DNA of 64,000 bases from Candidatus Magasanikbacteria bacterium CG11_big_fil_rev_8_21_14_0_20_39_34 (GTDB taxonomy: Bacteria; Patescibacteriota; Patescibacteriia; Magasanikbacterales; UBA922), in contig PCWN01000003.1 of NCBI GenBank assembly GCA_002787355.1, forward strand, positions 8,606 through 72,605. The letters run 5' to 3'. Below, one piece after another: positions 394-50,100 of the stretch. The notes below the pieces were generated by a model. The model had not been told where the DNA came from and ran no database searches. It saw only the letters and a program-made list of their open reading frames with translations. Position 1 is the stretch's first letter, and each line of letters starts with the position of its first letter. The position numbers were made by a program, and so were the translations under genes.

Positions 394-422
394 TTGACAT
401 AAAAAATATCAAAGGTTATTAT
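394..422 (+). promoter_or_regulatory. sigma70-type promoter (TTGACA-17nt-TATTAT) for the 464..1018 gene
   Basis: TTGACA at 394-399, a 17-nt spacer, TATTAT at 417-422, and GGAAAG Shine-Dalgarno about 9 nt before the ATG at 464. Confidence 0.5.
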
Positions 423-463: not shown

Positions 464-1018
464 ATGAAGTACCTAGACCCATTTTACCTTCTTCTTCGTT
501 TTGTCGTTCTGCGCCGCCTCTACAAAGCAAACCTCAGCCCTGCTCAGTTTGCTTTTCTGGAGGACAACACCGGCAAACAACGCCTTTCTCTCTGGGTTAC
601 CCTCATCGTGTCCGTCCCTCTTTACTTTGGTGTGGTTCAAAGTGAGGGAAACCAAGACCGACTCCTGATGGGGATGATTGGTTTCGTCGCTGTCACGGGA
701 TCCGGATGGTATGTCCTGAGCTTTGGAGGGATCCCAGCCAAGCTCCTGGACGCTGCCATGGAGATCACCTTCTACATGTGGACCAGTTTTGTGTGTGCCC
801 TCACAGCCACTCTGCTGGTACTGATCACCATGTTTCCGCCACTGTGCTGGCCTGCCCTTTTCATCATCTATCTGGGTGCCATTTTCTCCGGTATGCAGTA
901 TGACACCACGGACGGAATGAAAATTGGATTGGATGAAACTCTCCAAAGGCATTCCCGTGCAGCACTGCAATACTACAAACGAGAAGGTATCCACCCAGAC
1001 GAAGAACGAAACGAATAG
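464..1018 (+). CDS. hypothetical polytopic membrane protein (G+C-rich island 1)
   Basis: 184-aa ORF with several hydrophobic helices. G+C and GC3 are clearly higher than in the flanks. A C-rich tail (gtgccccacccacgcc) follows the stop. Confidence 0.55.
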   Translation: MKYLDPFYLLLRFVVLRRLYKANLSPAQFAFLEDNTGKQRLSLWVTLIVSVPLYFGVVQSEGNQDRLLMGMIGFVAVTGSGWYVLSFGGIPAKLLDAAMEITFYMWTSFVCALTATLLVLITMFPPLCWPALFIIYLGAIFSGMQYDTTDGMKIGLDETLQRHSRAALQYYKREGIHPDEERNE

Positions 1019-1052
1019 TCTTGTGCGTGCCCCACCCACGCCAAAAATTCCT

Positions 1053-1456: not shown

Positions 1457-1987
1457 CTACTGATTCCTATAGAGAACTATACCACTGTGATAGGGCCCAC
1501 AGATAAATTCTTCTTGAACTACAAACCCACGCATCTTTGCCCAATCCTTTATATCTTGGAAGTCGACAAACCGACCATCCTGTGGACCAAACCGCAGTCC
1601 TTTTTTTGACCAGTCTACAATGATCAGTCGTGCCTTGTCTTTTAACAACCGAGCACACTCCTCCAAAATAGCATGTCGATTATTGGACTGAACCAAAGTA
1701 TTTACCAAAAATCCAACATCCAAACTTTTGTTGGGAATATGCGAAGCCCCAATGCGTTCCAAATCTGCCCATACGGGTTGTACGTTGAAAAAACCATTAT
1801 CTTTTGCCCTTTTATCCACTTCATGAATAATATCTTTCATAATATCCACGGCATACACGATCCCTTTTTCTCCCACTATTCTTGCAGCGGGGAGTACCAC
1901 ATGCGCTGTTCGACCACAACCAAAATCTGCAATATGCATTCCCTGTTGCAGTTGTCCTTTTTCAAAAAGTAGATTGATATCTATCAT
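1457..1987 (-). CDS. class I SAM-dependent methyltransferase
   Basis: IADFGCGRTA (motif I) and a Rossmann-like pattern. The ORF extends to 2059, but that overlaps the neighbouring gene, so the start at MIDINLL (1987) is preferred. Confidence 0.6.
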   Translation of the reverse strand: MIDINLLFEKGQLQQGMHIADFGCGRTAHVVLPAARIVGEKGIVYAVDIMKDIIHEVDKRAKDNGFFNVQPVWADLERIGASHIPNKSLDVGFLVNTLVQSNNRHAILEECARLLKDKARLIIVDWSKKGLRFGPQDGRFVDFQDIKDWAKMRGFVVQEEFICGPYHSGIVLYRNQ

Positions 1988-2009
1988 ATGAAAATGTATG
2001 CTAACTCCC

Positions 2010-2243
2010 CTATGATATCCCAAACATGCTCCCAAATACACCCAAAATAATATCCCCAAGAGCCCCCGTCATCCCAAGGAAAGCAATAATGATTAAAATA
2101 ACGCCAATAAGCTTATAAAAATTGTAACTCCCCATGTGCATCTCTGCCCATTCGCTGGTTCCAAAATTTTGCACAAACCAATGTGTTTTCCAAACCATAA
2201 AAAAACCAACTAAAACCGCTAAGAATCCAAAAAAGTACCCCAT
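2010..2243 (-). CDS. small two-helix membrane protein, hypothetical
   Basis: 77 aa with two hydrophobic segments and no recognisable motif. Confidence 0.4.
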   Translation of the reverse strand: MGYFFGFLAVLVGFFMVWKTHWFVQNFGTSEWAEMHMGSYNFYKLIGVILIIIAFLGMTGALGDIILGVFGSMFGIS

Positions 2244-2285
2244 AAAATTTTATATATATTCAATACGGACATTATATCGTATTTT

Positions 2286-2912
2286 TTATTTTTGGGAAAG
2301 CAATGTAAATTCCAACCCCCAAACAACATGATCCGAAGATTGGCATTTGAAACATACATCTCGATACGGATGATCTTCAAACCGTGCTATAAAGTACGTT
2401 TCAATTTCAGGGATTTTTTGTTTTACCTCTTCTATATTTTCGGCCTTATCATCTATAAAATAAATGTGTTTATATTTTGATATAAGTGGAGATATAACAT
2501 TAACCTTCCTTTCGGTTGAAATAATATACTCATACCCCACTGGAAGATTACTGTGCTCAATTTTTTCTCTTTGAAGTTCCTTATCCCCGTGTGTTGCAAT
2601 GATAATATCAAATCTGTCCATGTGTCTTAAAAAAAATTCTCTCACATCTGGAAAAACACACTCTTTAGCGTGCTCTTTTATAACACTATGCACGGCATGA
2701 TGAAGTTTTTTTGAATCATAACCTAAGAAGGAGTCCACAAAATGGTCAATGTCTATGACATTATTAACCTTTTTAATAAGAGAACGATGCGCATCAAAAT
2801 CTTTTTCTGAGATATGAAAAACTCCACAGAATACTTCCTTTAGCTTTTGCACATATATGGTTGTATTAAAAAGAGTATGATCAAAGTCAATGATAATAAG
2901 ATTCTCTTTCAT
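2286..2912 (-). CDS. HAD-superfamily hydrolase
   Basis: N-terminal IIIDFDHTLF is the DxDxT HAD motif I. Downstream K and DD motifs are present. Confidence 0.65.
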   Translation of the reverse strand: MKENLIIIDFDHTLFNTTIYVQKLKEVFCGVFHISEKDFDAHRSLIKKVNNVIDIDHFVDSFLGYDSKKLHHAVHSVIKEHAKECVFPDVREFFLRHMDRFDIIIATHGDKELQREKIEHSNLPVGYEYIISTERKVNVISPLISKYKHIYFIDDKAENIEEVKQKIPEIETYFIARFEDHPYRDVCFKCQSSDHVVWGLEFTLLSQK

Positions 2913-3618: not shown

Positions 3619-5034
3619 TTAATGAAGATCATACCATTCAAAACCATCCATCCTTGGAAGCCTGTGCTGTTCTTTGGGTCCTTCACTTCCATCTTCATAG
3701 CGATAAAGTTTCGAACACCGTTCCTTCATCAACATTTTCATTTCATCCACTACACGCCACGCAGAGAGAATTTCTGAAAAGCTTAAAAAATGAAGCCTCT
3801 TCCCATCCAATACATCCAAAAGAAGCGAACCATGTTCAGGGAGACATCCGTCAATATTACAAGCAATTGAGTCCGCAGTCGTAATGGATTGATAACGAGA
3901 AACACCTTCCTGTAGGTTCACCAATTCAATATTGATTCTTGGTTCCGGATGAAATTCAATGATAATTCTATTGGGCTGTTCTTTCTCATCTTGAAAAGGA
4001 AACTTTTTGAGCTCAATAGAAATATATGTATGTTTTTCGTGCAACTTTTTTCCAGTACGTATATATATAGGAACTTTGTACCAATTTTCTTTATCAATAA
4101 ACATGCGTACCGCTGCAAATGTTTCAGTAGTAGAAGTTTTTTTCACTCCCTCTTGAGAACGATAACTTTTGTATTGTCCTAAAACAACATTGTCATCTTC
4201 TGCCGGACAATCAATGGCTTCAATAACGTTGTTTTTTTCCCTTTTGAGACTCTCAGAACTTAACTTATTCGGAATAGTCATAGTGGTAAGCGCAAAAATT
4301 TGCAAAAGGTGTGACTGAATCATATCGCGTACAATACCCACATGCTCAAAATATCCAATTCTGTGTTGTACACCAACCTCTTCAAGCGCAGTTATTTGTA
4401 TATTTGCAATTTCGCTCCCCCGTATAATGTTGGACAAAATTCTATTGGAACGACGCATATTTAAAATAGACTGTACTGAAGATTTCCCTAAATAATGATC
4501 CAATAGATAAAACTGTTCCTCCCCAAAGTGTTCAGACACATAGTGAAAAAGCGCCTCTGCACTCTTGTAGTCATGACCAAAAGGTTTCTCTATAACCAAA
4601 CGGATATCTTCATTTTTATTCTTTCTTGACTTAGAAAGGTTCGTGATAATAGGGTGAAAAACAACGGGCGGAACAGAAAAGTATGCAATATGTGACATCT
4701 CCTTTTTTGAGAGTGATTTCAAAAAAGTTCTATATTCTTGAAAACTTTTTAATTCATTATATTGCCCGGAAAAATAATGAACATGGGAAAGAAGTTCCTT
4801 GAGAACGCTTGGTTTAACATTTTCATTGGTATACTCTTGAATACTCTTCTCAACTTCTTTACGAAATTCGTCTTGTGTCTTCTCTGAACGCGCAAAACCC
4901 ACTATAAAATAATTCTGTGGAAATCTTCCCTGACGCGCCAAGGTATACAATGCTGGAAAAATTTTGATTTTTGCAAGATCTCCGGAAGCGCCAAAGATAG
5001 TGAGAATAAATGATTTTTTTAATTTTGGAATCAT
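3619..5034 (-). CDS. zwf: glucose-6-phosphate 1-dehydrogenase
   Basis: FGASGDLA NADP-binding motif, LDHYLGK active-site motif, 471 aa. Confidence 0.9.
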   Translation of the reverse strand: MIPKLKKSFILTIFGASGDLAKIKIFPALYTLARQGRFPQNYFIVGFARSEKTQDEFRKEVEKSIQEYTNENVKPSVLKELLSHVHYFSGQYNELKSFQEYRTFLKSLSKKEMSHIAYFSVPPVVFHPIITNLSKSRKNKNEDIRLVIEKPFGHDYKSAEALFHYVSEHFGEEQFYLLDHYLGKSSVQSILNMRRSNRILSNIIRGSEIANIQITALEEVGVQHRIGYFEHVGIVRDMIQSHLLQIFALTTMTIPNKLSSESLKREKNNVIEAIDCPAEDDNVVLGQYKSYRSQEGVKKTSTTETFAAVRMFIDKENWYKVPIYIRTGKKLHEKHTYISIELKKFPFQDEKEQPNRIIIEFHPEPRINIELVNLQEGVSRYQSITTADSIACNIDGCLPEHGSLLLDVLDGKRLHFLSFSEILSAWRVVDEMKMLMKERCSKLYRYEDGSEGPKEQHRLPRMDGFEWYDLH

Positions 5035-6845: not shown

Positions 6846-8141
6846 TTATGCTCGAGATAAATTTTTTCGAGTTAAATTTTTTGCCAACTCTACTCCTGGT
6901 TGGTTGAAGGCATCAATATTATAAAACTCACCCAAAAATGCTATAGATGCTTCAAATAGCATAAATAATGCTCCTACATGATAGGCATCCACCGTATCAA
7001 TATGGATGGTAAGGTTTGGGACATCATATTTTGTATATGCATTACAGGTTGCAATTCTTTCAACATCAATAAGCTTATTAAAACTAGCTCCTTTCATATA
7101 CTGCAATTCAGGTAACTCTTTATGCAGCATAGGAATAGGAACTGTTTTGTGTAAATTTTTTACCGCAAGAACCATAATAAGTTTATCCTTTGGCCCTTCA
7201 TTATACAACTGCGCCTGTGAGTGTTGATCCGTGGTACCGAGAGCCTTTACTGGGGTAATACCAACATTTACCATTTTTCCACTACGAGTTTTCTCTTTCC
7301 CAATACTTTCTGCTAAAAGCTGTCTATACCAATCTGCCATGAAAGCTAACTTTTGTGCATAGGGCATCATTACATTTATGGTCTTTCCCTTTTTCTCCAA
7401 CAGGTATTGTGCACGAGCAAGCTGAAACGGAAGATTCTTCTTTGCATCTGTACTCAAAAAAAGATCCCGCATATCTCTTGCACCTTTCAAAAGTGACTTT
7501 GTATCCATTCCTGCAAACGTTGCAGGAGTAAGCCCAACCGAACTGAGCACAGAAAAACGTCCTCCTACGGGTCCATGAGGAACCATGGGAATCCCTTCTC
7601 TCTCATGAATCTCACGCAAAACTCCCTTTTCGGGATCCGTGATAAATAAAATATGTTTTTCCGGATTCAACTTTGCCTTTTTTATTAAATTTTTAAAATA
7701 CATGTACTGAGAAATGGGCTCAGGAGTGGTGCCCGATTTTGAAACAATGAGAAAAAGTGTTTTGGGAAGGTCTATAACATCCAAAATTTCAACCATCATG
7801 GTTGGATCAATATTGTCCAATATGTAAAGTTGTGGTACTTTTTTACTTTTTCTTTGTTCCTGAAAAAGATGCTGAAGAGACCTTTGTAAACAAATAGTAC
7901 CCAACGCAGACCCACCAATCCCGCAAACCACGACATGTAAAATATCCTTATAATGCGAAGCAACTTCTGCAATTCTTTTCAGTTCATCCGTATCATCCAC
8001 AATAGAATAAAAATTTTGGTTCCGTGAATGGACATCCGATAATAAATTTTGCAAATCTTTTTTAGAGGCTTGTAAATCCTTTTGTGCTAAACCATGTTGT
8101 TTAGCAACTTTGAAAGTATTTTTAAAATCAATGGATAGCAT
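6846..8141 (-). CDS. pgi: glucose-6-phosphate isomerase
   Basis: SKSGTTPEP, PVGGRFSVLSSVG and FNQPGVELAK match both PGI signatures. Confidence 0.85.
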   Translation of the reverse strand: MLSIDFKNTFKVAKQHGLAQKDLQASKKDLQNLLSDVHSRNQNFYSIVDDTDELKRIAEVASHYKDILHVVVCGIGGSALGTICLQRSLQHLFQEQRKSKKVPQLYILDNIDPTMMVEILDVIDLPKTLFLIVSKSGTTPEPISQYMYFKNLIKKAKLNPEKHILFITDPEKGVLREIHEREGIPMVPHGPVGGRFSVLSSVGLTPATFAGMDTKSLLKGARDMRDLFLSTDAKKNLPFQLARAQYLLEKKGKTINVMMPYAQKLAFMADWYRQLLAESIGKEKTRSGKMVNVGITPVKALGTTDQHSQAQLYNEGPKDKLIMVLAVKNLHKTVPIPMLHKELPELQYMKGASFNKLIDVERIATCNAYTKYDVPNLTIHIDTVDAYHVGALFMLFEASIAFLGEFYNIDAFNQPGVELAKNLTRKNLSRA

Positions 8142-8153
8142 ATATTATTATAT

Positions 8154-8408
8154 TTATTCACCAAGTTTTTCCATGAGTTTTCCCTCTGAGTGTAATCTAT
8201 TTAAATCATCAAAACCACCAATCAACTCCTCATCAAAAGTAATTAAGGGAACGGTTTGCCACTGATACCGCTCAATCAGTTCATCTCGAAGTTGAGTATC
8301 TTGTTCTACATCCACTTCCTCAAACGGTACGTGAAGTGCCTTTAAAAGCTCCTTTGCCTTTTTACAATAAGGACAATATGTTGTGGTATAAACTTTTACT
8401 TGTTTCAT
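8154..8408 (-). CDS. glutaredoxin
   Basis: YCPYCKKAK (CPYC) active site, TVP and GGFDDL motifs, 84 aa. Confidence 0.85.
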   Translation of the reverse strand: MKQVKVYTTTYCPYCKKAKELLKALHVPFEEVDVEQDTQLRDELIERYQWQTVPLITFDEELIGGFDDLNRLHSEGKLMEKLGE

Positions 8409-8417
8409 ACAACTGCG

Positions 8418-9119
8418 CTATTTATTAAGAAAACGTATATCTACAAAATAAGATTTTGCATCTTTGGGATCAATAAAAACTTCAATCTCTTTTCCTATCT
8501 CCACATAAGACGATGGATCAAACCATACATGATCACTTTTCCACTGCATATTTTCATTGGTAAGTGGATTCAATCCTTCAACATATATACGATAGGGACT
8601 TTGACCATTTATTTTGTATGTTGTATCCACTTCAATATGATGAACTTTGCCCGAAACCCTTTGACCAAATGAAAACAAATATTCAACTTGTTTTTTTCTT
8701 CTTCGAGTAAAGTAAATCCCCACAAAACCAATTCCCCCAAAAATTAATCCGAAAAGCCCAAAAACCAATGGGAAAGTAAATTTACTTCCAAAGTCATTTA
8801 CACGTGCACCATAGGGTTTATCCTTAGCATATACAACTTCAACTTTATCACCCACTGAATAACTTGAAGGGTTTGAACCGGCATTAGAAACAAAAGTAAT
8901 ACTCTCTCCATCCGTAGTTTTAAACTCAACTTTTGGAGCATAATATACGGTTCCATCCTCTGAATCTTCTCTCGAAACAATTTCAGTAACCTTCCCCGAA
9001 CTATAAATCCCATTCTGAAAAAATGTATAAGTATTCCATGCAACCACCCCCGCAACCCCGAAAAACAATAGACCAAAGAGACTAAAAAGAATAAATATAA
9101 AATTTTTTGATTTTTTCAT
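8418..9119 (-). CDS. membrane-anchored protein with two DUF3592-like beta domains
   Basis: N-terminal TM, a soluble domain, a second TM (FPLVFGLFGLIFGGIGFVGIY), then a second similar domain. Confidence 0.45.
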   Translation of the reverse strand: MKKSKNFIFILFSLFGLLFFGVAGVVAWNTYTFFQNGIYSSGKVTEIVSREDSEDGTVYYAPKVEFKTTDGESITFVSNAGSNPSSYSVGDKVEVVYAKDKPYGARVNDFGSKFTFPLVFGLFGLIFGGIGFVGIYFTRRRKKQVEYLFSFGQRVSGKVHHIEVDTTYKINGQSPYRIYVEGLNPLTNENMQWKSDHVWFDPSSYVEIGKEIEVFIDPKDAKSYFVDIRFLNK

Positions 9120-19167: not shown

Positions 19168-19389
19168 TTATGCTAGGAAAAGCATGACAATCCCAATAGC
19201 AAAGAAGACAAGAGCCAAGATAACAGATGCCCTGTGGAGAAACAAATCAACACCTCGCTTGGTAGCGGCAATTCCGCCACCCGTTCCACCAAATCCAGCA
19301 CCTAATCCATCTCCCTTTTGCTGTAAAAGAATTGCAGCAGAGAGTAGTATTCCAACCACGAGTTGTACAATAGTAAGTATCTGATTCAT
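19168..19389 (-). CDS. secG: preprotein translocase subunit SecG
   Basis: MNQILTIVQLVVGILLSAAILLQQKGDGLGAGFGG... is the typical SecG. The ORF extends to 19539, but the Met at 19389 gives a canonical 73-aa SecG. Confidence 0.85.
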   Translation of the reverse strand: MNQILTIVQLVVGILLSAAILLQQKGDGLGAGFGGTGGGIAATKRGVDLFLHRASVILALVFFAIGIVMLFLA

Positions 19390-19492
19390 AGTACGTTTAT
19401 TATACCAAAAAACTTTCAGTATTTCAAAATGTAATTTTTTCTGTGGCCATATAATACCTTTTCTTTCCATTTCTGTCAAGATAGCCCATACC

Positions 19493-19521
19493 TTGACAGG
19501 ACATTTTTTGCTGTGTATAGT
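19493..19521 (+). promoter_or_regulatory. sigma70-type promoter (TTGACA-17-TATAGT) for island-2 gene
   Basis: TTGACA at 19493-19498, a 17-nt spacer, TATAGT at 19516-19521. AGGGAG Shine-Dalgarno lies 8 nt before the ATG at 19554. Confidence 0.5.
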
Positions 19522-19553
19522 GTTTTTTGCATGTAACAACCAGGGAGCAGCAC

Positions 19554-20006
19554 ATGCACGGGCTCATCCTTGTAGTGGTGCTCGTTCTTGGAGCACTCTT
19601 CATGGGGAAGTTCATCTCCCCCATCCTGCATCAAGTCGCCCTCACGAAAACCCTCCTGGCCCACCCGGGGAAGGTACACACCATTTCTCATCCGGGCTCA
19701 TGGAACCCTCGTAACTGGAAGATGCGCTACATTCGCATCCACCCAAATGAAGGACTTCCATTCTCCGGAAGGATCGGCTTCACCTTTCTGGGGAAGACCT
19801 GGTTCTTCGGGAAGTTCGAGGCAGAAGAGGGGGAGGATATCTACCTCCACACCTTCTTTGGACGTGGGAGCACGAGGTTCCTCGTCCACATCGAGATCCA
19901 AGGCGATCAAGAAATCATGATCGGCCTAACGGAGTCCATTGACACGTCCTTCCCTCGACGAGTCATTGAATTTCCCCCCACCATCTTCCAACGCATCGGA
20001 ATCTAG
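19554..20006 (+). CDS. hypothetical protein with N-terminal TM/signal (G+C-rich island 2)
   Basis: 151-aa ORF with very high GC3. The ORF-track start at 19527 is a TTG; the ATG at 19554 has a proper Shine-Dalgarno. Confidence 0.55.
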   Translation: MHGLILVVVLVLGALFMGKFISPILHQVALTKTLLAHPGKVHTISHPGSWNPRNWKMRYIRIHPNEGLPFSGRIGFTFLGKTWFFGKFEAEEGEDIYLHTFFGRGSTRFLVHIEIQGDQEIMIGLTESIDTSFPRRVIEFPPTIFQRIGI

Positions 20007-20046
20007 GTCGAGCCCCCCGACCTTCCACACCCCAACTTGACATCAA

Positions 20047-20075
20047 AAATAATTCTTGCTATAATCGAGCCACTT
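20047..20075 (+). promoter_or_regulatory. sigma70-type promoter (TTGACA-17-TATAAT) for rpmE
   Basis: Perfect -35 and -10 hexamers with a 17-nt spacer. Confidence 0.5.
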
Positions 20076-20093: not shown

Positions 20094-20432
20094 ATGAAAA
20101 CAGAGACACATCCAGACGTACATCCAGTTGTTTTTATTGATACTTCTTGTGGAGTGGAGTTTATTACAACCTCTACCATGAAGTCAGATGAGACACGAGA
20201 AATTAATGGCGTTACACATTTTGTAATCCCTCTTGAAATTTCTTCTGCATCACATCCTTTTTATACTGGAAAACAAGTCTTTATCGATACCGCTCGCCGT
20301 GTGGAGAAATTCCAAGAAAAGATGAAAAAAGTGGAATCAGCTCAAGGAGAACGCAAAGGAAAAAAAGCAAAGCGAGCAGCAAAAGCAGCCGTAAAAGCGA
20401 AAAAGACTGAAAAAGAAAACGCTGAAGCGTAG
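20094..20432 (+). CDS. rpmE: 50S ribosomal protein L31 with Lys-rich C-terminal extension
   Basis: [12 protein letters not shown]...TSCG...SHPFYTGKQ...DTARRVEKF is the L31 pattern. Start at the internal Met of ORF 20037. Confidence 0.85.
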
Positions 20433-31833: not shown

Positions 31834-34779
31834 TTAAGGAGGCGGGAGGTCCTCATCGTCGGCCTGGTCTACACCGGCGTCCGGAAGGATCATTTTGGGA
31901 ACGTTATCTAGCATTGGTGTGACCACTTCTCCATCCTGGATGAATGGTGGTCCGGGATCCACAGAAGTTGGTTCCACATAGGGTTCCGTTGGTTCGGTAC
32001 CCTCAAGGAAGCACTCCTTTGGTGGATCCGGCTCATCCGTCTCAAGCAACATTCCATGCTCGAAGTCGAATGGGACACACACCACGCCTTCTGGCGGTGG
32101 GCCAAAACCGTTCAGTTCTTCCGGTCTGTCTTCCGTAGAACCGAAGAAACCTGCATTCCACATACTCTCCAGCGCCGACTTTACAATCGGCAGAGCAGCA
32201 GATGCTCCGGTCTCTGCACGACGTGCCCGCCCCTTGAGCGGCGCAGCATTATCAAAGCCCACCCATGAGACCACGACAGCCTCAGGAAGAACTCCGATAA
32301 ACCACGTCGACTTGGACTGGTTCGTCGTACCGGTCTTGCCCGCTACCGGAAGCGGAAAGTTCTTGAGTCTTGCGCCCGATCCGTCTGTCACGACCGAGCG
32401 CATCATGTTGCGCAGTAGCCACATGACCGCCTCGCTGAACTCTCGCTTTCGCACTGATGGAAGAGTCGCCTCAATCTCGATTTCATCTCCACCTAGGCTC
32501 TCGATGTGATCGATGAGCCTCCACTTTGCGTGGATACCACCACTTGCAACGGTGGCATAGGCAGTTGCGAGCTCAAGAGGAGAAACTTCACTTCCACCAA
32601 GAGCGATAGAAGGTCCCTGTGCCAACGCAGAAGTAATCCCAACCCGCCGAAGCGTGTTGGTCACCATCTCATAGCCAATATCCTCATGGCAAATGAGCTG
32701 CGCCGCGATAGAGTTGACCGACCCGGCCAATCCTTCTCGCAAGGTCATGGGGCCTTCCCGGTATTTTCCGCCGTAGTTCCCTGGTGACCATTCCTTCTCA
32801 TCGAATCCCTTTCCGTCTGCCCAGGGTATCCTGTAGTGGCAGGTGTAGGGTTCGTCGATGAGACGCTGCGGTGCAACACGATCCGCCGTACCCCAAGGGG
32901 TGAAGACCTTCATGTCGAGGGCCGTCAGGTACACCCCAAGAGGCTTGAACGTGGAACCGGGTTGCAATGCGGACAGGCACCGGTTGTAACGGGAGAGCGA
33001 GTAGCTGTCGCCGCACACCAGTGCACGAATCTCGTGGGTCTGTGGATCCAGATGAACCATGGCCGCTTGAGGGCCCATTTCGGGGCGAACCCAAACGTGG
33101 TTCTTCTTTCCAGCAACAGGTTCAATGACCTGTGCCTGGATCACATCTCCAGGAGACCAGCGGAAACGCTCCTTCGCAGGTTCCGGCTCAGTCGGCTTTT
33201 CACCAGACTTTGCCTTTGCCTTCTTCTGGGCGCGCTCCCACTTCCGCAAATCCCTCTGCCACTGCTTCTGCGCCTTTTTGTAGGCGTTCCGGTCCTCTTC
33301 CGAGATCCGGTAGTAGCGCGAGAGATTCCGCAAACGAATTTGTCCGGTGAGACCACCCCCAAGATCCAGGTAGAGAAAACCATTTTCCGGGTCATCTTCC
33401 ACCTTTTGGACCTTGGCAAGTACCAGGCTTGCGGGCTTCACGACCTGACTCTGCGGGATAGACTTGTGGAGAGGATCGGCGAACCCCTGTCGCTCATCAA
33501 CTTCTGCAAGCTGGTGAACAATGGCGTCCCGAGCCTCCCTCTGACGCTCGCTATTTATGGTGAGGTAAACTCGGATTCCTCCACGACGGAGCGTATCCTT
33601 GTCCAGACTCTCTTCCAAAATAGAAAGCGCCATGTCCTTGGCCCAACCACCCTCGTCCCCCTCTTGGGGTTGATCGATCAGGTTGAACTCCTCAGACAAA
33701 GCCTCGTCTCGCTGAGCAGTCGTGATGAATCCCTCGTGGTGCATGCGGTTGAGCACATACGCACGACGGACTCGCGCCGCTTCGGGGTGACGATCTGGAC
33801 GCAGGCGTTCCGGGGACTGCACCATACCGGCAAGCATGGCACATTGCGCCAGCGTGAGCTCGCTGAGGTCCTTTCCCCAATAGAACTTGGAGGCCTCGAT
33901 GGGACCAACGCGGCCTCCACCTAGATATGCCCAGTTCCAGTACAGGATCATGATGTCCTGCTTGGAGAACTTGTCCTCGAGCTTCCACGCCAGCAGCCAC
34001 TGGGCCAGCTTGTAGCCCAGCTTGCCCTTCCCCTTCTCCAGGCCAGCGATGTTCTTGACCACCTGCATGGAGATGGTGGAACCGCCGGGCCCGCTGTGCC
34101 TGTGCTTGAGGACGTATACGGCCGCGCGGGCAATTCCCTTGAGGTCCACACCATTGTGTGCGGACACACCATCTCGCTCGAGGAAGTTTTCATCCTCGGA
34201 AGAAATGATGGCCTGCACCAGGTGAGCCGGAAGCTCCTCGTAGCTCACAACCGGCGTGTAATACGTCGGCCGCTGCCAGAGAAGCACCTTGTCATGGGAG
34301 TAAACCTCAAGCGTTCCCGGCTGCTCCACTTCTGAAGCCGCCTGAACATCGGGGAGATCCTGCACGAACTTCGCAGCCACGTGCTCCAGCACAGGGCGGA
34401 AGAACACAAGGACACACAGTGCCCCCATGGCCGCGGTGATAATCCCCGAAAGGAAGATCGCCGTGAAAGGGCGGCGGCGCAGCTTGAAACTAAGGAAGGC
34501 CAGGAACGTCGGCGGCAAGGCCAGTGGCCAGTACAGCCAAAAGCCCAGGCCCATAGCCCCAAGCCATATGAGGATCGCCGGCCAGACGATTCCCCACGTA
34601 AGAGCGCGGCTGAACAAGCCGCGCTCGTCCTTCGGGCGAGATGGTTTTTCTTTCTTTGGCCGGCGCTCCCGCACCGGCCTCGTCTTGTCCCGACCAGCCG
34701 GCCGGGACGAGGTGGTCTTCTTGCTAGGGGGCGTATCATCCCCCCCGAGCTCGAAATCCTCATCCATCCAACTGGCCAT
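31834..34779 (-). CDS. ponA: class A penicillin-binding protein (PBP1A; GT51 transglycosylase + transpeptidase), G+C-rich
   Basis: GT51 motifs (IISSEDENFLERDG, GGSTISMQVVKNI), transpeptidase motifs (STFKP, SVNS, KTGTT), an N-terminal basic cytoplasmic tail with a TM helix, and a Pro/Glu-rich C-terminal tail. By eye the G+C is far above that of the flanking genes. Confidence 0.9.
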   Translation of the reverse strand: MASWMDEDFELGGDDTPPSKKTTSSRPAGRDKTRPVRERRPKKEKPSRPKDERGLFSRALTWGIVWPAILIWLGAMGLGFWLYWPLALPPTFLAFLSFKLRRRPFTAIFLSGIITAAMGALCVLVFFRPVLEHVAAKFVQDLPDVQAASEVEQPGTLEVYSHDKVLLWQRPTYYTPVVSYEELPAHLVQAIISSEDENFLERDGVSAHNGVDLKGIARAAVYVLKHRHSGPGGSTISMQVVKNIAGLEKGKGKLGYKLAQWLLAWKLEDKFSKQDIMILYWNWAYLGGGRVGPIEASKFYWGKDLSELTLAQCAMLAGMVQSPERLRPDRHPEAARVRRAYVLNRMHHEGFITTAQRDEALSEEFNLIDQPQEGDEGGWAKDMALSILEESLDKDTLRRGGIRVYLTINSERQREARDAIVHQLAEVDERQGFADPLHKSIPQSQVVKPASLVLAKVQKVEDDPENGFLYLDLGGGLTGQIRLRNLSRYYRISEEDRNAYKKAQKQWQRDLRKWERAQKKAKAKSGEKPTEPEPAKERFRWSPGDVIQAQVIEPVAGKKNHVWVRPEMGPQAAMVHLDPQTHEIRALVCGDSYSLSRYNRCLSALQPGSTFKPLGVYLTALDMKVFTPWGTADRVAPQRLIDEPYTCHYRIPWADGKGFDEKEWSPGNYGGKYREGPMTLREGLAGSVNSIAAQLICHEDIGYEMVTNTLRRVGITSALAQGPSIALGGSEVSPLELATAYATVASGGIHAKWRLIDHIESLGGDEIEIEATLPSVRKREFSEAVMWLLRNMMRSVVTDGSGARLKNFPLPVAGKTGTTNQSKSTWFIGVLPEAVVVSWVGFDNAAPLKGRARRAETGASAALPIVKSALESMWNAGFFGSTEDRPEELNGFGPPPEGVVCVPFDFEHGMLLETDEPDPPKECFLEGTEPTEPYVEPTSVDPGPPFIQDGEVVTPMLDNVPKMILPDAGVDQADDEDLPPP

Positions 34780-34982
34780 CTGACACCTCCAAAAATTGGA
34801 TTCGTACGAGAAAGGAACGTTCTTCTCTCAAAGAAGTTTCCTTTCTCGTACGAAATTTGTAAAAGAACATTCTCTTTCATTCCTCCCGAATACTTTATCT
34901 CCATTCCATTGATGAAAATAAACTATTTAAAAAGAAGGTTTTTTCTGGACGTTGCGGTGGGAACAACGTCCATGTGGTGGGT

Positions 34983-35816
34983 TTATGGGATGATGCAGCT
35001 CCCAGTCAGCTCCTGTGAAATTCTCTCCACAGACTCGCTGTAGAAAGCATCGACCTTGGGGTAGTCCAATGCCAGGTCACGAACTCGATCTCCTTCTGGC
35101 AGGAGCACAGCGCAGAGTCGAAAGAGTTCGCTTGCATCCAATGAAAGCCCATCTTCAATGGGTTCCACAACATGCAAGCAGGTCCTCACCATGTTCGCCC
35201 CCTTGTAAAAGGCGGCCACGATGAGCTCCTCGCTCCATCCTTCTTCAGCCTCTTGCTCAAAACTGTCGGCAAGGGCATACATGACCCGCCAAGGATCGAG
35301 ACGTTCGTCCTCCACATCGTCGTCCACCGTAAGACCGTATCCCTTTGCTTCCGCAAACGAGAGGGTCAGGAGGCCCCTCCCACCGAGCATGGTCCTCACA
35401 TCGTTTTGCCCTCGAGTCTGAGCAAAGGTGAGGAAGAAGAGCGGGCGGACTACGTTGCTTTGATACCCTTCTTGGACATCCGTGAGCAGCGTGTGGAGGT
35501 ACGCCGCACGCTCGCAGTAAGTGAAGTTCTCGGAGAGCACGTGCTGTGCATCTCCCTCCGGAACTCCATCCGACCAGTTTACCCCCGTAGGATTGGGGGT
35601 GGGTGTGGAAACCTGCTGCGACGGATTTGTTTGTTGGAACTCCCCTGGGCTCCACAGAGACGGGAGCTTGGGGAGCAGATGCCTGGGGACAATCGCGTCC
35701 CCACCCTGGTCCTTCCTCACCGTTTCACCCTGCTGAATACCCGTAGGCATCCAGAGGGCAAAGAGAATCGAGGAAAAGAACAGGGAGAACAGGAACACAA
35801 TGCCAAGACGCTTCAT
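34983..35816 (-). CDS. hypothetical secreted protein co-transcribed with PBP1A (G+C-rich)
   Basis: N-terminal signal/TM (MKRLGIVFLFSLFFSSILFALW), G+C-rich, no recognisable motif. First gene after the 35936-35964 promoter. Confidence 0.5.
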   Translation of the reverse strand: MKRLGIVFLFSLFFSSILFALWMPTGIQQGETVRKDQGGDAIVPRHLLPKLPSLWSPGEFQQTNPSQQVSTPTPNPTGVNWSDGVPEGDAQHVLSENFTYCERAAYLHTLLTDVQEGYQSNVVRPLFFLTFAQTRGQNDVRTMLGGRGLLTLSFAEAKGYGLTVDDDVEDERLDPWRVMYALADSFEQEAEEGWSEELIVAAFYKGANMVRTCLHVVEPIEDGLSLDASELFRLCAVLLPEGDRVRDLALDYPKVDAFYSESVERISQELTGSCIIP

Positions 35817-35935
35817 TTTGAAACCCTTGCAAAAAGAATCCAACAGAGATAAGTCCTCAAAAAAAGCACTCCCCTCTCCTAAATTCTTTATTTTTCTTCT
35901 TATTTTAGCAAAAAAATTTTCTTTTCGAACGGGCC

Positions 35936-39847: not shown

Positions 39848-39876
39848 TTGACAAAAAGGCAAAATTGAGCTATATT
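39848..39876 (+). promoter_or_regulatory. sigma70-type promoter (TTGACA-17-TATATT) for island-4 gene
   Basis: Hexamers with a 17-nt spacer. AGGAAAGG Shine-Dalgarno lies 8 nt before the ATG at 39944. Confidence 0.5.
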
Positions 39877-39943
39877 CTCAGGTCAACTTTCGTGAAATTC
39901 TTTACGAAGATGACCTTTTTTGGTTTGTAGGAAAGGCAGAACC

Positions 39944-40354
39944 ATGCGCCGCACCCTGACCATCCTGATCACCGTGACCATCCTCATGACCACCATCTTC
40001 AACCGGGGGGGGTTCTGTGCCCCCGCGGTCTACCGCCCCAAAACGGGCCGTCTCTCGCCCGGAGAGTGGGGCAAGGGGATCTTCGTCGGGGGCCTGGCCC
40101 TCGGCGGATACGCCGTCTACCAGATGGGCAAAGACAACGGGATCAAGGCGGCACCGGAGGTGTTCGCCGTGGGTCTCGTGGCCGTCGTGCTGGGAGGCGT
40201 TCTCGCCTTCGCCGACCCGGAGACGCCCGTGGACCGCTTCCCCAACAACCCTCCAAAAAAGAAGGCCAAACCGGTCTACCACCTCTCACTTTCCCCCGCC
40301 ATGCTCCCAAACGGACATTTGGGAGCAGAAGCCTGTCTTGGCTTCACTTGGTAG
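39944..40354 (+). CDS. hypothetical small membrane/secreted Gly-rich protein (G+C-rich island 4)
   Basis: 136 aa with a signal-like N-terminus (MRRTLTILITVTILMTTIF), a Gly-zipper helix (GIFVGGLALGGYAVY ... AVGLVAVVLGGVLAF) and extreme GC3. Confidence 0.5.
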   Translation: MRRTLTILITVTILMTTIFNRGGFCAPAVYRPKTGRLSPGEWGKGIFVGGLALGGYAVYQMGKDNGIKAAPEVFAVGLVAVVLGGVLAFADPETPVDRFPNNPPKKKAKPVYHLSLSPAMLPNGHLGAEACLGFTW

Positions 40355-40437
40355 GTCCTGCCCCACCCAGGACCAATCCCCCACACTCCCTATCTTAAAA
40401 GAAGGTAATGAGTACCAAGGGATTTTCTGTCTTACCC

Positions 40438-40466
40438 TTGACATTTTTCGCTTATTTGGGTACTAT
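40438..40466 (+). promoter_or_regulatory. sigma70-type promoter (TTGACA-17-TACTAT) for rplA
   Basis: Hexamers with a 17-nt spacer, 127 nt upstream of the rplA ATG. Confidence 0.45.
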
Positions 40467-40592
40467 AGTGCCATTCATACAGAAAGGTCTTTCTTCAAAG
40501 AAAGCCCTGTGGGACCTCTGACCACTCAGAGGGATATCACCACAACTACGGAAGAACAAATATTTTATTTGTCGCCGTATTATCCATTTTTT
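40467..40592 (+). promoter_or_regulatory. structured rplA 5' leader (candidate L1 autoregulatory element)
   Basis: Two hairpins: GGTCTTTCTT-caa-AGAAAGCC, and CTCTGA-ccac-TCAGAG followed by GGGA. L1 mRNA operators mimic the 23S rRNA L1 site. Unverified. Confidence 0.3.
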
Positions 40593-41270
40593 ATGTCAAA
40601 AAGAATGAATGAGCTCTCAGCTCAGGTTGATAAAACCAAAGTTTATTCTATTGCAGAGGCAATTGAACTTGTAAAGAAAACAAGTACCGTGAAATTTGAT
40701 GCCTCAGTTGAAGTTCATGCACGCCTTGGAATTGATCCAAAACAGTCAGACCAACAAATCCGTTCTACCGTAGTACTCCCACATGGAACCGGTAAAACCA
40801 AAAAAATTGCAGCTTTCGTAGGACCAAATGATGAACAAGCAGCAAAAGATGCTGGTGCAGACTTTGTATACGGAGAACAAGAAATCAAAACTATTAAAGA
40901 TACCTCAAAAGTAGATTTTGAAGTTGCCATCGCAACTCCAGAGATGATGCCAAAAATTGCGGTTATTGCGCGACTCTTGGGGCCACGTGGTCTCATGCCA
41001 AACCCAAAGACAGGAACGGTGGGACCAGATGTAAAGAAAATGATTACCGAGTTAAAAGGTGGTAAGATTGCATTTAAAAATGATGCCACTTCAAATGTTC
41101 ACCTGATCATTGGAAAAGTAAGCTTTGAGAATGGAAAACTTGAAGAAAATTTTGCAGCGTTTCTCGATGCACTCAAAAAAGCAAAGCCAACTTCAAAAGG
41201 TACCTATATCAAGTCTCTCTTCCTCACCAGTTCTATGGGACCAAGTGTGAAGCTGGATATCAACCAATAA
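40593..41270 (+). CDS. rplA: 50S ribosomal protein L1
   Basis: 225 aa with the L1 pattern (KFDASVEVHARLGIDPKQSDQQIR, TPEMMPKIA, GPRGLMPNPKTGTV). The ORF-track start at 40017 is a read-through across the G+C-rich island. Confidence 0.93.
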   Translation: MSKRMNELSAQVDKTKVYSIAEAIELVKKTSTVKFDASVEVHARLGIDPKQSDQQIRSTVVLPHGTGKTKKIAAFVGPNDEQAAKDAGADFVYGEQEIKTIKDTSKVDFEVAIATPEMMPKIAVIARLLGPRGLMPNPKTGTVGPDVKKMITELKGGKIAFKNDATSNVHLIIGKVSFENGKLEENFAAFLDALKKAKPTSKGTYIKSLFLTSSMGPSVKLDINQ

Positions 41271-47742: not shown

Positions 47743-50100
47743 ATGCATCAAGCCTACGAACGACTGAAAATAGCACTAAACGATGCCCGCAACGTAGTAG
47801 ATACTGCTGGATTTTTTGATATTGCAGAAACAGATCTCGAAAAAGCTGTGGAGAGAATGGACATAACAGACCTAAGGATGACACTTGAAGCATTAAAAGA
47901 AAAAAGAAAAATGGTTGCAGACGCACGCATGGCACTCCCAGAGCGTCCCCCCCGATTTGAAGCAGAAGTCATAGAAGAAGCAAAAAAAGATCCAGACTCC
48001 TTCTTTTCTGCACACCAAAAAGCTTTGAATGCAGCCACAAATGGTGAAGCCATAGGACGTGATGACTTAAACCAAGCTCTCCAAGGTGTGCTGTTAGACC
48101 TAAGTGACGCAACGTTCTTTTTTGAACCTGAAGCCCAAATGAACTTTTTAAAAGAAAAGAAAAAGGAAGAAGAAAGAAGAAAAATTATTTCAGATATACA
48201 AAGCAAATCTCTAGAACGTCCATTTTTTCCCTATACCCTTGCCCCTCTTGGCCGAGAACTAGATTTTATTTCAAACGAGGGACTGGAACTCATCCTCCAA
48301 AATCTTCCAGAGCTTGGGCATATCCTGAAAAAATATGAATTTGTTCCTGATGAAATCCTTCTTGAAGATACAGTACCTGTAGCATTTATAGACACTACCC
48401 CCCTAAATGGTCTCCATCATACCAAACTCCGGATTACACTCAATAATGAATACTGGAAAGAAGAGCTTGGAAAAGAAATTGCCGCCTCTCATCAACCTAC
48501 TACAGAAAGAGAAACAAATAATAACAAAATTCGCTTTATACTTTGGGATACACAGTTTGGAAAGAATCTGCATGCGCGGGTATATATTCAAAACGGATTT
48601 GTAGATGATAGACGTACACCTGCATTCCTTGCAGATACCACAGACACAGGTTTTAGAAACAAGTTATTACAGGTCCAGAGCTGGATAGAAGAATATGCAA
48701 GAGAAATTTTAGAAGATAGTACACTAGACATGTCCATTACAATAACTCAAACATGGAATGCAGGAGGTTCAGGAACTCTTGAAATTCCTATCTTTAAAGA
48801 TGAAGCAACCATTAAACTATTTATTATTGATTACGTAGATGACTACAAAAAATTAAAACTCTTTAACTCTGTTCGAAATACGTTTTCAGAACCAGAAAGA
48901 ATTAGTACTTCTTCTTCTGATATTCCAGACACCATCTCCGAAAACGAAATGCAAAAACGGATAGAAGAAATCCTGAATACCCTTGATCGTGCAGGATTGT
49001 CCAAAGTAAAAGTAGTCAATGCGGGGTACTCTCGGATAGACCTCTCAGATGAAAGTATTTTCGTTTGTTTTTTTGATGATGATTGGAGGGAACAACTCAA
49101 TGCTTGCATTGAAAAGTATACAAGAAAATTAGAAGACGATAGACAAGAGCAAGAGCAAAAAAAAGAACGCTCTGCAGCAATCCTGAGGGTACAAAGACTC
49201 GTTGAAGAATTTAATACTCGATCTGATCAGATAGAAATAATTATACGTGATAATTATTTTACATATCTTCAGACCTCAGAAATCATAGATCATGAACGAG
49301 ATTTGCCACTTATTTTTCGTCAACTCAGAACTGGAGATTATCCCCGCATACAAAAAATTGTTTTTCTCCCAGGTCTCATGCCTTCCTATAAAGATGAACA
49401 TGGTACAACATTTTTGAATATCAAGGGATGTACTTTTCAGGACGTTCAACGTGAATTGGACTTTTTTGGGCACGTCTCTTTTGCTCATAACCATGAAGCA
49501 GAATCGTCTTCATCTGACTGGAACAAAGGGTTCTACTTTAGTGGAAAACTTACAGACTCAAAAAAACGTAATGGTATTGGCACGACCTACTCAGGCACCA
49601 ACCTAAATGATCCCACTGAAGGGGGAGAATACAAAGATAATAGACTCGTGAAAGGAAAGCGCTATGTAGGTGATAATTGTTATATTTACATAACTGAGGA
49701 AACTGACGTATCCTATCAAAACGGAATGGTTGAAAGAATAGAAAATGGACCAGCCACAATTTTTGTTAATGAAAAAAATTCAGAAAAAAACCCCAGAGAA
49801 AATTATGATGTCGTCTTTAGGAATGGAGAAATTCAAGAACTTAAAAGCTCTTCTCACACTGGACAGACACTTCCCCTTACTGTCGGACAGCGCTATGAGT
49901 ATCTCCCCAAAAAAGGTGTCCTATCAAGACTCAAAACAGAAAAAGCGAGAGTTTCCAATATGTATATTTCAAGTCGCGGAGATAATCTACTGTATGTTGA
50001 TATAATTACTCCGGAAAATGAAACCATAACAGTACCCTATAATAAAATTGATAAATATCTAAGAACGCTACCAGAGCCCAAACCCAAAAAAAAATCCTAA
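47743..50100 (+). CDS. giant-operon protein 3 (785 aa, hypothetical; C-terminal MORN-like Gly/Tyr repeats)
   Basis: 5-nt gap from ORF2. C-terminal YFSGKLTDSKKRNGIGTTYSGTNLNDPTEGGEYKDNRLVKGKRYVGDNCYIY resembles MORN repeats. Confidence 0.65.
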   Translation: MHQAYERLKIALNDARNVVDTAGFFDIAETDLEKAVERMDITDLRMTLEALKEKRKMVADARMALPERPPRFEAEVIEEAKKDPDSFFSAHQKALNAATNGEAIGRDDLNQALQGVLLDLSDATFFFEPEAQMNFLKEKKKEEERRKIISDIQSKSLERPFFPYTLAPLGRELDFISNEGLELILQNLPELGHILKKYEFVPDEILLEDTVPVAFIDTTPLNGLHHTKLRITLNNEYWKEELGKEIAASHQPTTERETNNNKIRFILWDTQFGKNLHARVYIQNGFVDDRRTPAFLADTTDTGFRNKLLQVQSWIEEYAREILEDSTLDMSITITQTWNAGGSGTLEIPIFKDEATIKLFIIDYVDDYKKLKLFNSVRNTFSEPERISTSSSDIPDTISENEMQKRIEEILNTLDRAGLSKVKVVNAGYSRIDLSDESIFVCFFDDDWREQLNACIEKYTRKLEDDRQEQEQKKERSAAILRVQRLVEEFNTRSDQIEIIIRDNYFTYLQTSEIIDHERDLPLIFRQLRTGDYPRIQKIVFLPGLMPSYKDEHGTTFLNIKGCTFQDVQRELDFFGHVSFAHNHEAESSSSDWNKGFYFSGKLTDSKKRNGIGTTYSGTNLNDPTEGGEYKDNRLVKGKRYVGDNCYIYITEETDVSYQNGMVERIENGPATIFVNEKNSEKNPRENYDVVFRNGEIQELKSSSHTGQTLPLTVGQRYEYLPKKGVLSRLKTEKARVSNMYISSRGDNLLYVDIITPENETITVPYNKIDKYLRTLPEPKPKKKS

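Follow-up and report, generated by a model that had tools for sequence, protein, structure and literature searches.

A GC3-rich gene between secG and rpmE in a Magasanikbacteria genome: a lineage-restricted cassette with possible silent-site selection for a structured transcript

The closest described counterparts of the gene analyzed here are phage morons, ORFans and horizontally acquired islets, replacement flexible genomic islands and integron cassettes. Hendrix and colleagues are said to have described phage 'morons' as autonomous units of promoter, open reading frame (ORF) and terminator between conserved genes, and bacterial ORFans are typically richer in A+T than their genome. Our subject is a small gene between secG and rpmE in Candidatus Magasanikbacteria bacterium CG11_big_fil_rev_8_21_14_0_20_39_34, within a stretch of 64,000 nucleotides (nt) that we call the window (contig PCWN01000003.1, positions 8,606 to 72,605 of the forward strand). 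This gene, hereafter the target, has a very high G+C content at third codon positions (GC3) in a window of about 39% G+C. We give about an even chance to the reading that it is a lineage-restricted, fast-evolving gene whose synonymous sites are selected for a structured transcript.

We compared the locus with each of these systems. Like a moron, it places one ORF, together with a sigma-70 promoter of its own and a hairpin behind it, between intact conserved genes; its composition is unlike that of its neighbours and its product, as is often the case for morons, is a small membrane protein of unknown function. It differs in standing in a housekeeping chromosome (secG, rpmE, prfA) with no prophage and no PHROGs or phage match, in being richer in G+C and seemingly maintained so, and in a hairpin without U-tract whose C-rich loop is conserved. 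With ORFans and acquired islets it shares the absence of detectable homologues, a patchy occurrence among relatives and an outlying composition. Unlike them, the genes described here are about 0.4 higher in GC3, the amino acids of the target are host-like, and the silent sites of the X1 pair, two genes in the same slot of two related contigs, are at a GC-rich equilibrium. Replacement flexible genomic islands hold different surface-related genes at one locus in each strain, which resembles a conserved slot with unrelated membrane-protein genes in each lineage; here, however, the inserts are single small genes rather than multi-gene clusters, and the genomes are deeply diverged (RF1 about 68% identical) rather than strains. 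Finally, integron cassettes also combine small, often orphan ORFs with a hairpin-forming site common to unrelated cassettes. In contrast to integron cassettes, those seen here are dispersed singly, each with a promoter, and no array was seen, an integrase not having been searched for. Conservation here falls on the loop (CCCACC), and in attC on the R''/R' core sites, which lie at the stem base; 20000–20040 contains neither R'' (RYYYAAC) nor R' (GTTRRRY).

The features of the target locus, in window coordinates, are the following.

19168–19389, minus strand: secG (73 amino acids, aa), the left flank; Pfam PF03840, E 1e-11; GC3 0.32.
19399–19479, minus strand: candidate secG promoters TTGACA-17-TATTAT (19479 to 19451) and TTGAAA-17-TATAAT (19427 to 19399), each with 11/12 consensus matches.
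19473–19499, no strand: palindrome CTGTCAAGATA/TACCTTGACAG, an inverted repeat made up of the −35 boxes of the secG and target promoters, which stand back-to-back.
19493–19521, plus strand: target promoter TTGACA-17-TATAGT, 11/12 to the sigma-70 consensus, in AT-rich, host-like DNA.
19542–19547, plus strand: Shine-Dalgarno AGGGAG, read from the sequence, with the ATG 6 nt further on.
19554–20006, plus strand: target coding region, 150 sense codons and TAG; GC3 0.70; NCBI annotation, hypothetical protein COV59_00940.
19560–19616, plus strand: predicted N-terminal transmembrane anchor, residues 3–21 (GLILVVVLVLGALFMGKFI); Kyte-Doolittle 2.58.
19665–20003, plus strand: predicted all-beta domain and short C-terminal helix with the motif EFPPTIFQRIGI; AlphaFold model, low confidence.
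20005–20023, plus strand: 3' hairpin AGGTCG-AGCCCCC-CGACCT, with a C-rich loop, a 6-bp stem and no U-tract.
20024–20036, plus strand: C/A-rich tail TCCACACCCCAAC, the end of the GC-rich stretch.
20037–20065, plus strand: rpmE promoter TTGACA-17-TATAAT with TG upstream, 12/12 to the consensus.
20094–20432, plus strand: rpmE (L31, 112 aa), the right flank; Pfam PF01197, E 1e-21.

The target is a real protein-coding gene with a predicted transcription unit of its own. It alone of the six frames is open throughout and shows GC3 > GC1 > GC2 (GC1 and GC2 being the G+C contents at codon positions 1 and 2), so the coding signal of the preferred frame holds against the alternatives. A stop-free run as long as the ORF arose in 35 of 2000 shuffles of the region (1.75%). 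The ORF was seen in the same context on 14 contigs, with at least three independent samples represented; therefore, the locus is no assembly chimera. Every element that the original prediction had listed here was recovered at its stated position or a few bases from it: the promoter, the Shine-Dalgarno sequence spaced 6 nt from an ATG at 19554, the N-terminal hydrophobic helix, the 3' stem, the rpmE promoter behind it and the position between secG and rpmE. Its four or more shadow ORFs on both strands are five by our count (66–110 aa), and its protein of 151 aa is corrected to 150 aa, as the ORF gives 150 sense codons and a stop. The hairpin stem begins inside that stop, including the last two bases of TAG. 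On the 3' side of rpmE lies the gene of RF1 (prfA), identified by Pfam, and a SBP_bac_5 gene is also among the immediate neighbours.

The overall G+C of the target is 0.543, and the values at the three codon positions are 0.54, 0.38 and 0.70. Host-like ORFs of the window (n = 49) have a GC3 of 0.305 ± 0.053, which places the target about 7.5 standard deviations (SD) above them and bears out the extreme GC3 first predicted. GC1, GC2 and the fractions of FYMINK (0.29) and GARP (0.25) residues all lie in the host range; GC3 alone deviates. Such host-like GC1, GC2 and amino-acid usage fit a long residence in the lineage and not a typical GC-rich donor. The G+C is 0.30–0.42 from −120 to −1 of the target, 0.60 in the 40 nt past the stop and 0.30 further on.

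The transcript is also predicted to be unusually structured. Its folding z score is −2.9 to −3.2 against dinucleotide shuffles and −3.6 against synonymous-codon permutations, which keep the protein and the codon counts. By the latter comparison, other GC-rich genes of the window (islands 1, 3b and 4 and the PBP1A gene, listed below) reach −5.05 (island 1), −5.0 (island 3b), −3.5 (island 4) and −2.1 to −5.8 (PBP1A segments), and genes of related contigs reach −4.0 (X1 of L085), −4.5 (L170) and about −7 to −8 (a 417-aa gene of L087, the most extreme). Most class members fall between −3.5 and −7.3. Among the controls, 18 host genes give −0.24 ± 1.05 and 12 GC-matched acidobacterial genes give −0.58 ± 0.88. 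Under stricter shuffles, the target gives −2.4 (30-codon blocks) and −3.1 (same GC class), other class members −1.8 to −6.5, and controls −2.2 to +0.2; these block-wise and same-GC-class shuffles rule out regional GC heterogeneity as the source of the folding excess. In nine of ten cases, more structure is predicted for the sense strand than for the antisense strand. The excess structure, a high G+C that keeps to the coding region and an AT-rich 5' untranslated region (5'UTR) agree with the view that the high GC3 results from selection for a base-paired transcript. On these folding models, selection for mRNA structure most plausibly drives it; silent-site G/C would build a heavily base-paired mRNA, probably long-lived or slowly translated.

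To place the locus in its lineage, related contigs (numbered with the prefix L) were found via RF1 and their neighbourhoods were then read. The block RNase J, SBP_bac_5, secG <-> rpmE, prfA is kept in most of them. The slot upstream of rpmE is occupied as follows.

L087, L088, L169 and L174: empty, with secG and rpmE adjacent.
L084: ORF of 223 aa as called (206 aa from the likely start); GC3 0.79.
L085: homologue of the L084 ORF, 212 aa (242 aa from the first ATG), GC3 0.74, and a second ORF of 148 aa.
L170: ORF of 163 aa on the opposite strand; GC3 0.80.
L171: ORF of 193 aa; GC3 0.75.
L172 and L173: homologous lipoprotein-like ORFs of 103 and 93 aa upstream of rpmE; GC3 0.65–0.66.

In L172 the left neighbour is rpsB and not secG, and the L173 contig ends short of its left neighbour; L086 has a ferredoxin gene, not secG, upstream of rpmE and no insert. 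The host GC3 of these related genomes is 0.30–0.45. All of the slot ORFs (the L173 homologue being outside the set) have a membrane segment and no family match, and they are mutually unrelated apart from the pairs L084/L085 and L172/L173. When 16 island proteins were compared with each other, no similarity was found beyond the X1 pair. We conclude that secG|rpmE is a permissive slot between divergent transcription units. In the RF1 tree, L169 (empty) and L171 (occupied) are sister genomes; therefore, gain or loss is ongoing.

The empty sites indicate how the slot is filled. In L169 and L088 the secG and rpmE promoters stand back-to-back (TGTCAA..TTGACA), and the same arrangement is found in L084 and L171; the palindrome at 19473–19499 stands at the site of this ancestral divergent promoter pair. 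The cassette promoter takes the rpmE side of the divergent pair in the window, in L084 and in L171, and a second consensus promoter precedes rpmE. As read from these comparisons, the target is an insertion into the ancestral divergent-promoter site, in which the target promoter stands in the place of the ancestral rpmE promoter, back-to-back with that of secG, and rpmE retains its own consensus promoter directly behind the cassette. The rpmE 5'UTR is conserved between the window and L085. A promoter duplication as a target-site duplication was considered and dropped, since beyond the consensus hexamers the left and right promoters have little in common. The 'island' of the original prediction thus stands as an insertion relative to the ancestral state (empty in the four contigs above), and probably not as a recent, genome-specific foreign import, which is weighed below. 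As for the same gene in relatives, the two with the most similar L31 (L084 and L085, 77–78% identical to that of the window, against 48–56% for L087 and L088, the other two in the alignment) carry a GC3-rich gene in the same slot and orientation, about 0.35–0.40 above host GC3; position and composition recur, and the sequence similarity to the target is weak.

These two genes encode the X1 proteins, P0122 (GCA_020632445.1, H6758_04085) and P0123 (SRR29965072), of 206–212 aa. They are 51% identical (E 6e-75), with nonsynonymous and silent divergences (pN and pS) of 0.33 and 0.51. Identity by codon position is 0.64, 0.72 and 0.52, so that position 2 exceeds position 1 and position 1 exceeds position 3; X1 is clearly a true gene. 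At four-fold sites with the same amino acid, 31 of 62 differ between L084 and L085, comprising 16 C<->G changes, 14 between C/G and A/T and one between A and T; for RF1 of the same pair the corresponding counts are 7, 51 and 14. The C<->G class is the one expected to be rarest under the AT-biased spectrum of the host, and its excess therefore means that losses of G/C at X1 silent sites are removed or reversed. By this comparison, the GC3 of X1 is at compositional equilibrium rather than in decay.

Several features connect the target with X1. BLASTP aligns collinear segments of the target and the L085 protein at E 0.008, and the profile hidden Markov model score between target and X1 was equalled or beaten by 31 of 2000 shuffles. 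X1 is the best non-self match of the target among the 16 island proteins, at marginal similarity. Both proteins have an N-terminal membrane anchor and end in the motif FPP-x-h-h-Q-+-h-G-I, and the order of predicted beta strands and C-terminal helix matches one for one, in models of low confidence (predicted local distance difference test, pLDDT, 55–60). Both genes lie between secG and rpmE on the plus strand relative to rpmE, and in both the stop is TAG and the hairpin behind it has a C-rich loop (C-loop). X1 differs in being 56–62 residues longer and in having two membrane helices against one. In amino acids, X1 diverges about three times as much as RF1, and at the distance from the window to L084 this rate would lead one to expect roughly the 20–30% identity that is seen. 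Overall, we lean slightly towards orthology of the target and X1. The second L085 gene (X2, the 148-aa ORF) was rejected as a homologue of the target (E 3.8). At the 3' side, the X1 genes carry two hairpins in series, the C-loop hairpin directly after TAG and a U-tract terminator about 60 nt on. In L084 these lie at 4343–4362 and about 4410–4432, the second being GCGCC-AATA-GGCG with T7; in L085 they lie at 3813–3834 and about 3885–3907, the second being GTGCC-AAATA-GGCAC with T6. The window target has the first type only, followed by the rpmE promoter.

The target is one of several GC-rich genes of the window that share an architecture: islands 1 (464–1018), 2 (the target), 3b (34983–35843, minus strand) and 4 (about 39944–40354). 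Those other than the target, together with the PBP1A gene, are as follows.

About 394–422, plus strand: island 1 promoter, TTGACA-17-TATTAT.
464–1041, plus strand: island 1, a 184-aa multi-pass membrane ORF; GC3 0.58, TAG stop, no family match; hairpin GCGTG-CCCCACC-CACGC at 1025–1041.
31834–34779, minus strand: island 3, the class A penicillin-binding protein PBP1A (Transgly and Transpeptidase, 981 aa); G+C 0.58, GC3 0.66.
34983–35843, minus strand: island 3b, a 286-aa signal-peptide ORF upstream of PBP1A; GC3 0.64, no family match.
39849–40395, plus strand: island 4, between rplK and rplA, with up to 70% G+C.
39849–39877, plus strand: island 4 promoter.
39944 (ATG) to 40354 (TAG), plus strand: island 4 ORF, a 136-aa membrane protein; GC3 0.80.
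40354–40374, plus strand: island 4 hairpin GGTCCTG-CCCCACC-CAGGACC, with the tail CCCCCACACTCCC.
About 40439–40467, plus strand: consensus rplA promoter.

Near-consensus promoters in AT-rich DNA precede islands 1, 2 and 4, the three for which promoters were read. All four islands end in a GC-stem hairpin with the loop CCCCACC, AGCCCCC or TCCCACC, the last in a 10-bp hairpin of the 286-aa gene at 34946–34972; in islands 2 and 4 the hairpin runs on into a C/A-rich tail. The same hairpin type is found behind X1 of L084 and L085, behind X2 and behind one L172 gene. Class members have high G+C from about the start codon to about 40 nt past the stop. PBP1A and the 286-aa gene have GARP fractions of 0.25–0.31, and ACCCACCAC stands just past the TAA stop in both. 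In 146 kb of Magasanikbacteria DNA, all seven strict hairpins lie 0–22 nt after the stop of a GC3-rich ORF, compared with two of 12 in 1.27 Mb of unrelated control loci; the strict pattern takes CCCACC, CCACCC and CCCCCC loops, and the AGCCCCC variant of the target escapes it. A TAG stop ends seven of the nine hairpin-bearing GC-rich genes against 8 of 36 host ORFs. The target hairpin was not called as an intrinsic terminator by the terminator scan, its C/A-rich tail taking the place of a U-tract. We found no description, in the full text of the searchable literature, of GC-rich orphan genes or C-loop hairpins in bacteria of the Candidate Phyla Radiation (CPR), nor of the 3' C-loop hairpin, maintained GC3 and hyper-structured coding regions as traits of a class.

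Further GC3-rich ORFs (0.63–0.82) lie off the slot, at 7445–8698 (minus strand) of L087, at 1816–2382 (minus strand) of L086 and at 33–674, 811–1182 and 8010–8819 of L172; therefore, the phenomenon is not confined to the rpmE slot. Those of L086 and L087 have no significant Pfam match, two of the three L172 ORFs likewise have none on record, and the third, which touches the contig end, was outside the search. A fifth GC-rich patch of the window (51787–51957, plus strand) was rejected as a cassette; it encodes a (Glu-Pro)n linker in a 1276-aa protein through 14 copies of a 12-nt repeat, which is ordinary low complexity.

Searches for relatives of the target outside these contigs were negative. 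With the single sequence, phmmer recovered only the query itself from 1.84 billion representative proteins, and no homologue besides the exact protein COV59_00940 was found among 5.8 billion clustered proteins; a profile of the 3-sequence family found no protein homologue either. Pfam (in line with the soluble domain without recognizable motif that had been predicted), NCBIfam, PHROGs, PADLOC and PDB sequences contain no match, tblastn against phages and plasmids returned nothing, and nothing in viral contigs matched the target. For Rfam there was no match at the gathering threshold and two chance-level matches only at E ≤ 10. Scans of metagenomes gave no match with the family profile and no close relatives among the matches listed with L31; the genome-contig scan with RF1 gave Acidobacteria only, at about 52% identity. 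Around the target no transposon-type flanking direct or inverted repeats were found, and the sole tRNA of the window is 28 kb away. No mobility gene was present among the few flanking ORFs scanned against Pfam, the window having had no systematic integrase or transposase scan.

We weighed the selection reading against four other explanations. A recent horizontal acquisition from an ordinary GC-rich donor, with codon usage and terminator not yet ameliorated, would account for a GC3 of 7.5 SD over the host, for the GC-rich 3' flank and a hairpin without U-tract, as in many high-GC bacteria, for a slot that is empty in several relatives and for the GC-rich amino-acid composition of PBP1A and the 286-aa ORF. 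This account leaves a donor missing from all of the protein, phage, plasmid and viral collections searched, and it meets host-like GC1, GC2 and amino-acid usage in the target. The high G+C begins at the start codon behind an AT-rich promoter and not in a foreign 5' flank, flanking repeats, a nearby tRNA and mobility genes were not seen in the scans described above, and GC3-rich genes occupy the same slot in relatives. GC-matched genes of real GC-rich genomes show no excess of mRNA structure, and the silent sites of the X1 pair indicate a GC3 that is maintained and not decaying. We consider this acquisition quite unlikely, and the view that the high GC3 is the residue of a recent import is probably wrong. 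Alternatively, a moron-like cassette may circulate only within Magasanikbacteria or an unsampled element of theirs and be swapped at secG|rpmE through recombination within conserved flanks or promoters; the composition and hairpin of the cassette would then mirror that gene pool and not selection in this genome. The unrelated cassettes on either strand in the same slot of different lineages, the difference between the sister genomes L169 and L171 and the common style of 3' hairpin are all as such traffic would leave them. The same is true of the consensus promoter with or before each cassette examined by sequence, with a second promoter behind where read, and of the lower pS of X1 and its flanking secG and rpmE than of RF1. 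No recombinase, repeats or element ends were seen, however, viral contigs gave nothing, and the likeness of the left and right promoters ends at the consensus hexamers; circulation would also leave unexplained the start-codon limit of high G+C and a synonymous codon order that maximizes folding. We regard it as unlikely.

The two remaining explanations concern the origin and nature of the ORF itself. In the case of a de novo origin, a GC-rich, structured non-coding insert without stops (for example an RNA element) would have been translated after capture of the rpmE-side promoter. The lack of homologues in searches, the natural scarcity of stops in GC-rich DNA (with five shadow ORFs at the target), the strong predicted RNA structure and the simple architecture of membrane anchor and beta strands point in this direction, whereas the strong GC3 > GC1 > GC2 periodicity, the protein-like amino-acid composition, the purifying selection on the probable orthologues (X1) and the absence of an Rfam match point away from it, and we judge it very unlikely. 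That the locus is not a gene at all, and is instead a GC-rich structured RNA or DNA element with a chance ORF, is in our estimation scarcely credible; the dinucleotide-shuffle z of the transcript and the 1.75% of shuffles with an equal stop-free run are what it can draw on, against a frame-specific G+C periodicity, an ATG with a ribosome-binding site at the right distance, a plausible beta domain behind a hydrophobic anchor, the position-2-conserved evolution of the X1 pair and, again, no Rfam family.

The selection reading itself faces a number of opposing observations, in both the folding and the X1 evidence. Five class members (L084 X1, L171, the L172 gene 123, L086 and L085 X2) show no folding excess, and all of the folding energies are predictions only. 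The silent-site argument stands on one orthologue pair and not on the target, and the lower pS of X1 compared with RF1 (0.51 against 0.75) could mean a later transfer between lineages. The PBP1A and 286-aa neighbours are GC-rich in amino-acid composition too and thus foreign-looking. Homology of the target and X1 is not established: BLASTP with L084 X1 gives E 0.33, hhalign gives E 0.07 with a probability of 0.8%, phmmer with the target did not recover X1, and the two structure predictions use one 3-sequence alignment and hence are not independent. Moreover, the RF1 tree is star-like and does not show the window organism to group with L084 and L085.

An extension of the selection reading to the whole lineage is a speculation that we think unlikely. 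Magasanikbacteria would keep a class of genes in a 'GC3-rich dialect', with silent sites selected for hyper-structured, long-lived transcripts and a common C-loop stem-loop read by a dedicated RNA-binding factor. These genes would form a post-transcriptional regulon of fast-evolving episymbiont membrane proteins, and the compositional 'islands' would be native.

For the product, the AlphaFold model from the 3-sequence alignment has a helix at residues 2–35, eight beta strands (residues about 38–139) and a short C-terminal helix, with low confidence (mean pLDDT 60). The protein begins with MH and runs straight into the hydrophobic core; the helix has no Lys or Arg before it and Lys residues after it. 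The target has neither the charged n-region of a Sec signal peptide nor the lipobox Cys of a lipoprotein, and its helix is more likely an uncleaved anchor. Given the charges on either side of the helix, the all-beta domain of about 110 aa would, by the positive-inside rule, lie on the cytoplasmic side. Foldseek of the model against PDB and BFVD gave generic beta-sandwich matches only (E ≥ 0.01). Our guess for now is that the product is a cytoplasmic beta-domain protein tethered to the membrane, from a lineage-specific family that evolves rapidly. Within the ORF, a motif (C/T)TTC-x-x-GGGGAAG, with the Gly-Lys codon pair GGG-AAG, recurs in 3–4 copies at 19598–19817, and the copies enter local hairpins such as GGGGAAGTTCATCTCCCC.

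Automatic calls in these contigs deserve a remark. The X1 gene of L085 (3081–3809) was called in the wrong frame on one contig (135 aa, GC1 0.82), and rpmE of L174 was missed, an antisense ORF being called instead (2479–2934). Given these miscalled loci, GC-rich genes of low-GC CPR genomes may be under-represented in protein databases. In the window, the mechanical ORF 40017–41270 wrongly joins island 4 to L1, whose domain begins at residue 219. The one tRNA, a 98-nt tRNA-Glu(UUC) called by ARAGORN at 48269–48366 (minus strand) opposite a 785-aa ORF (47743–50100), may contain an intron or be a false positive; Rfam at the gathering threshold reports no RNA in the whole window.

High-GC patches in low-GC genomes are routinely taken as foreign DNA, and the usual tests of import fail at the target locus. 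If the pattern is general, an entire class of native CPR genes would be wrongly labelled by horizontal-transfer detection based on composition, and gene callers trained on the bulk genome would miscall its members. It would also make a bacterium with a tiny genome a tractable case of strong silent-site selection for mRNA structure. Finally, the repeated use of the secG|rpmE slot makes it a natural site to study the entry of new small membrane proteins into CPR genomes.

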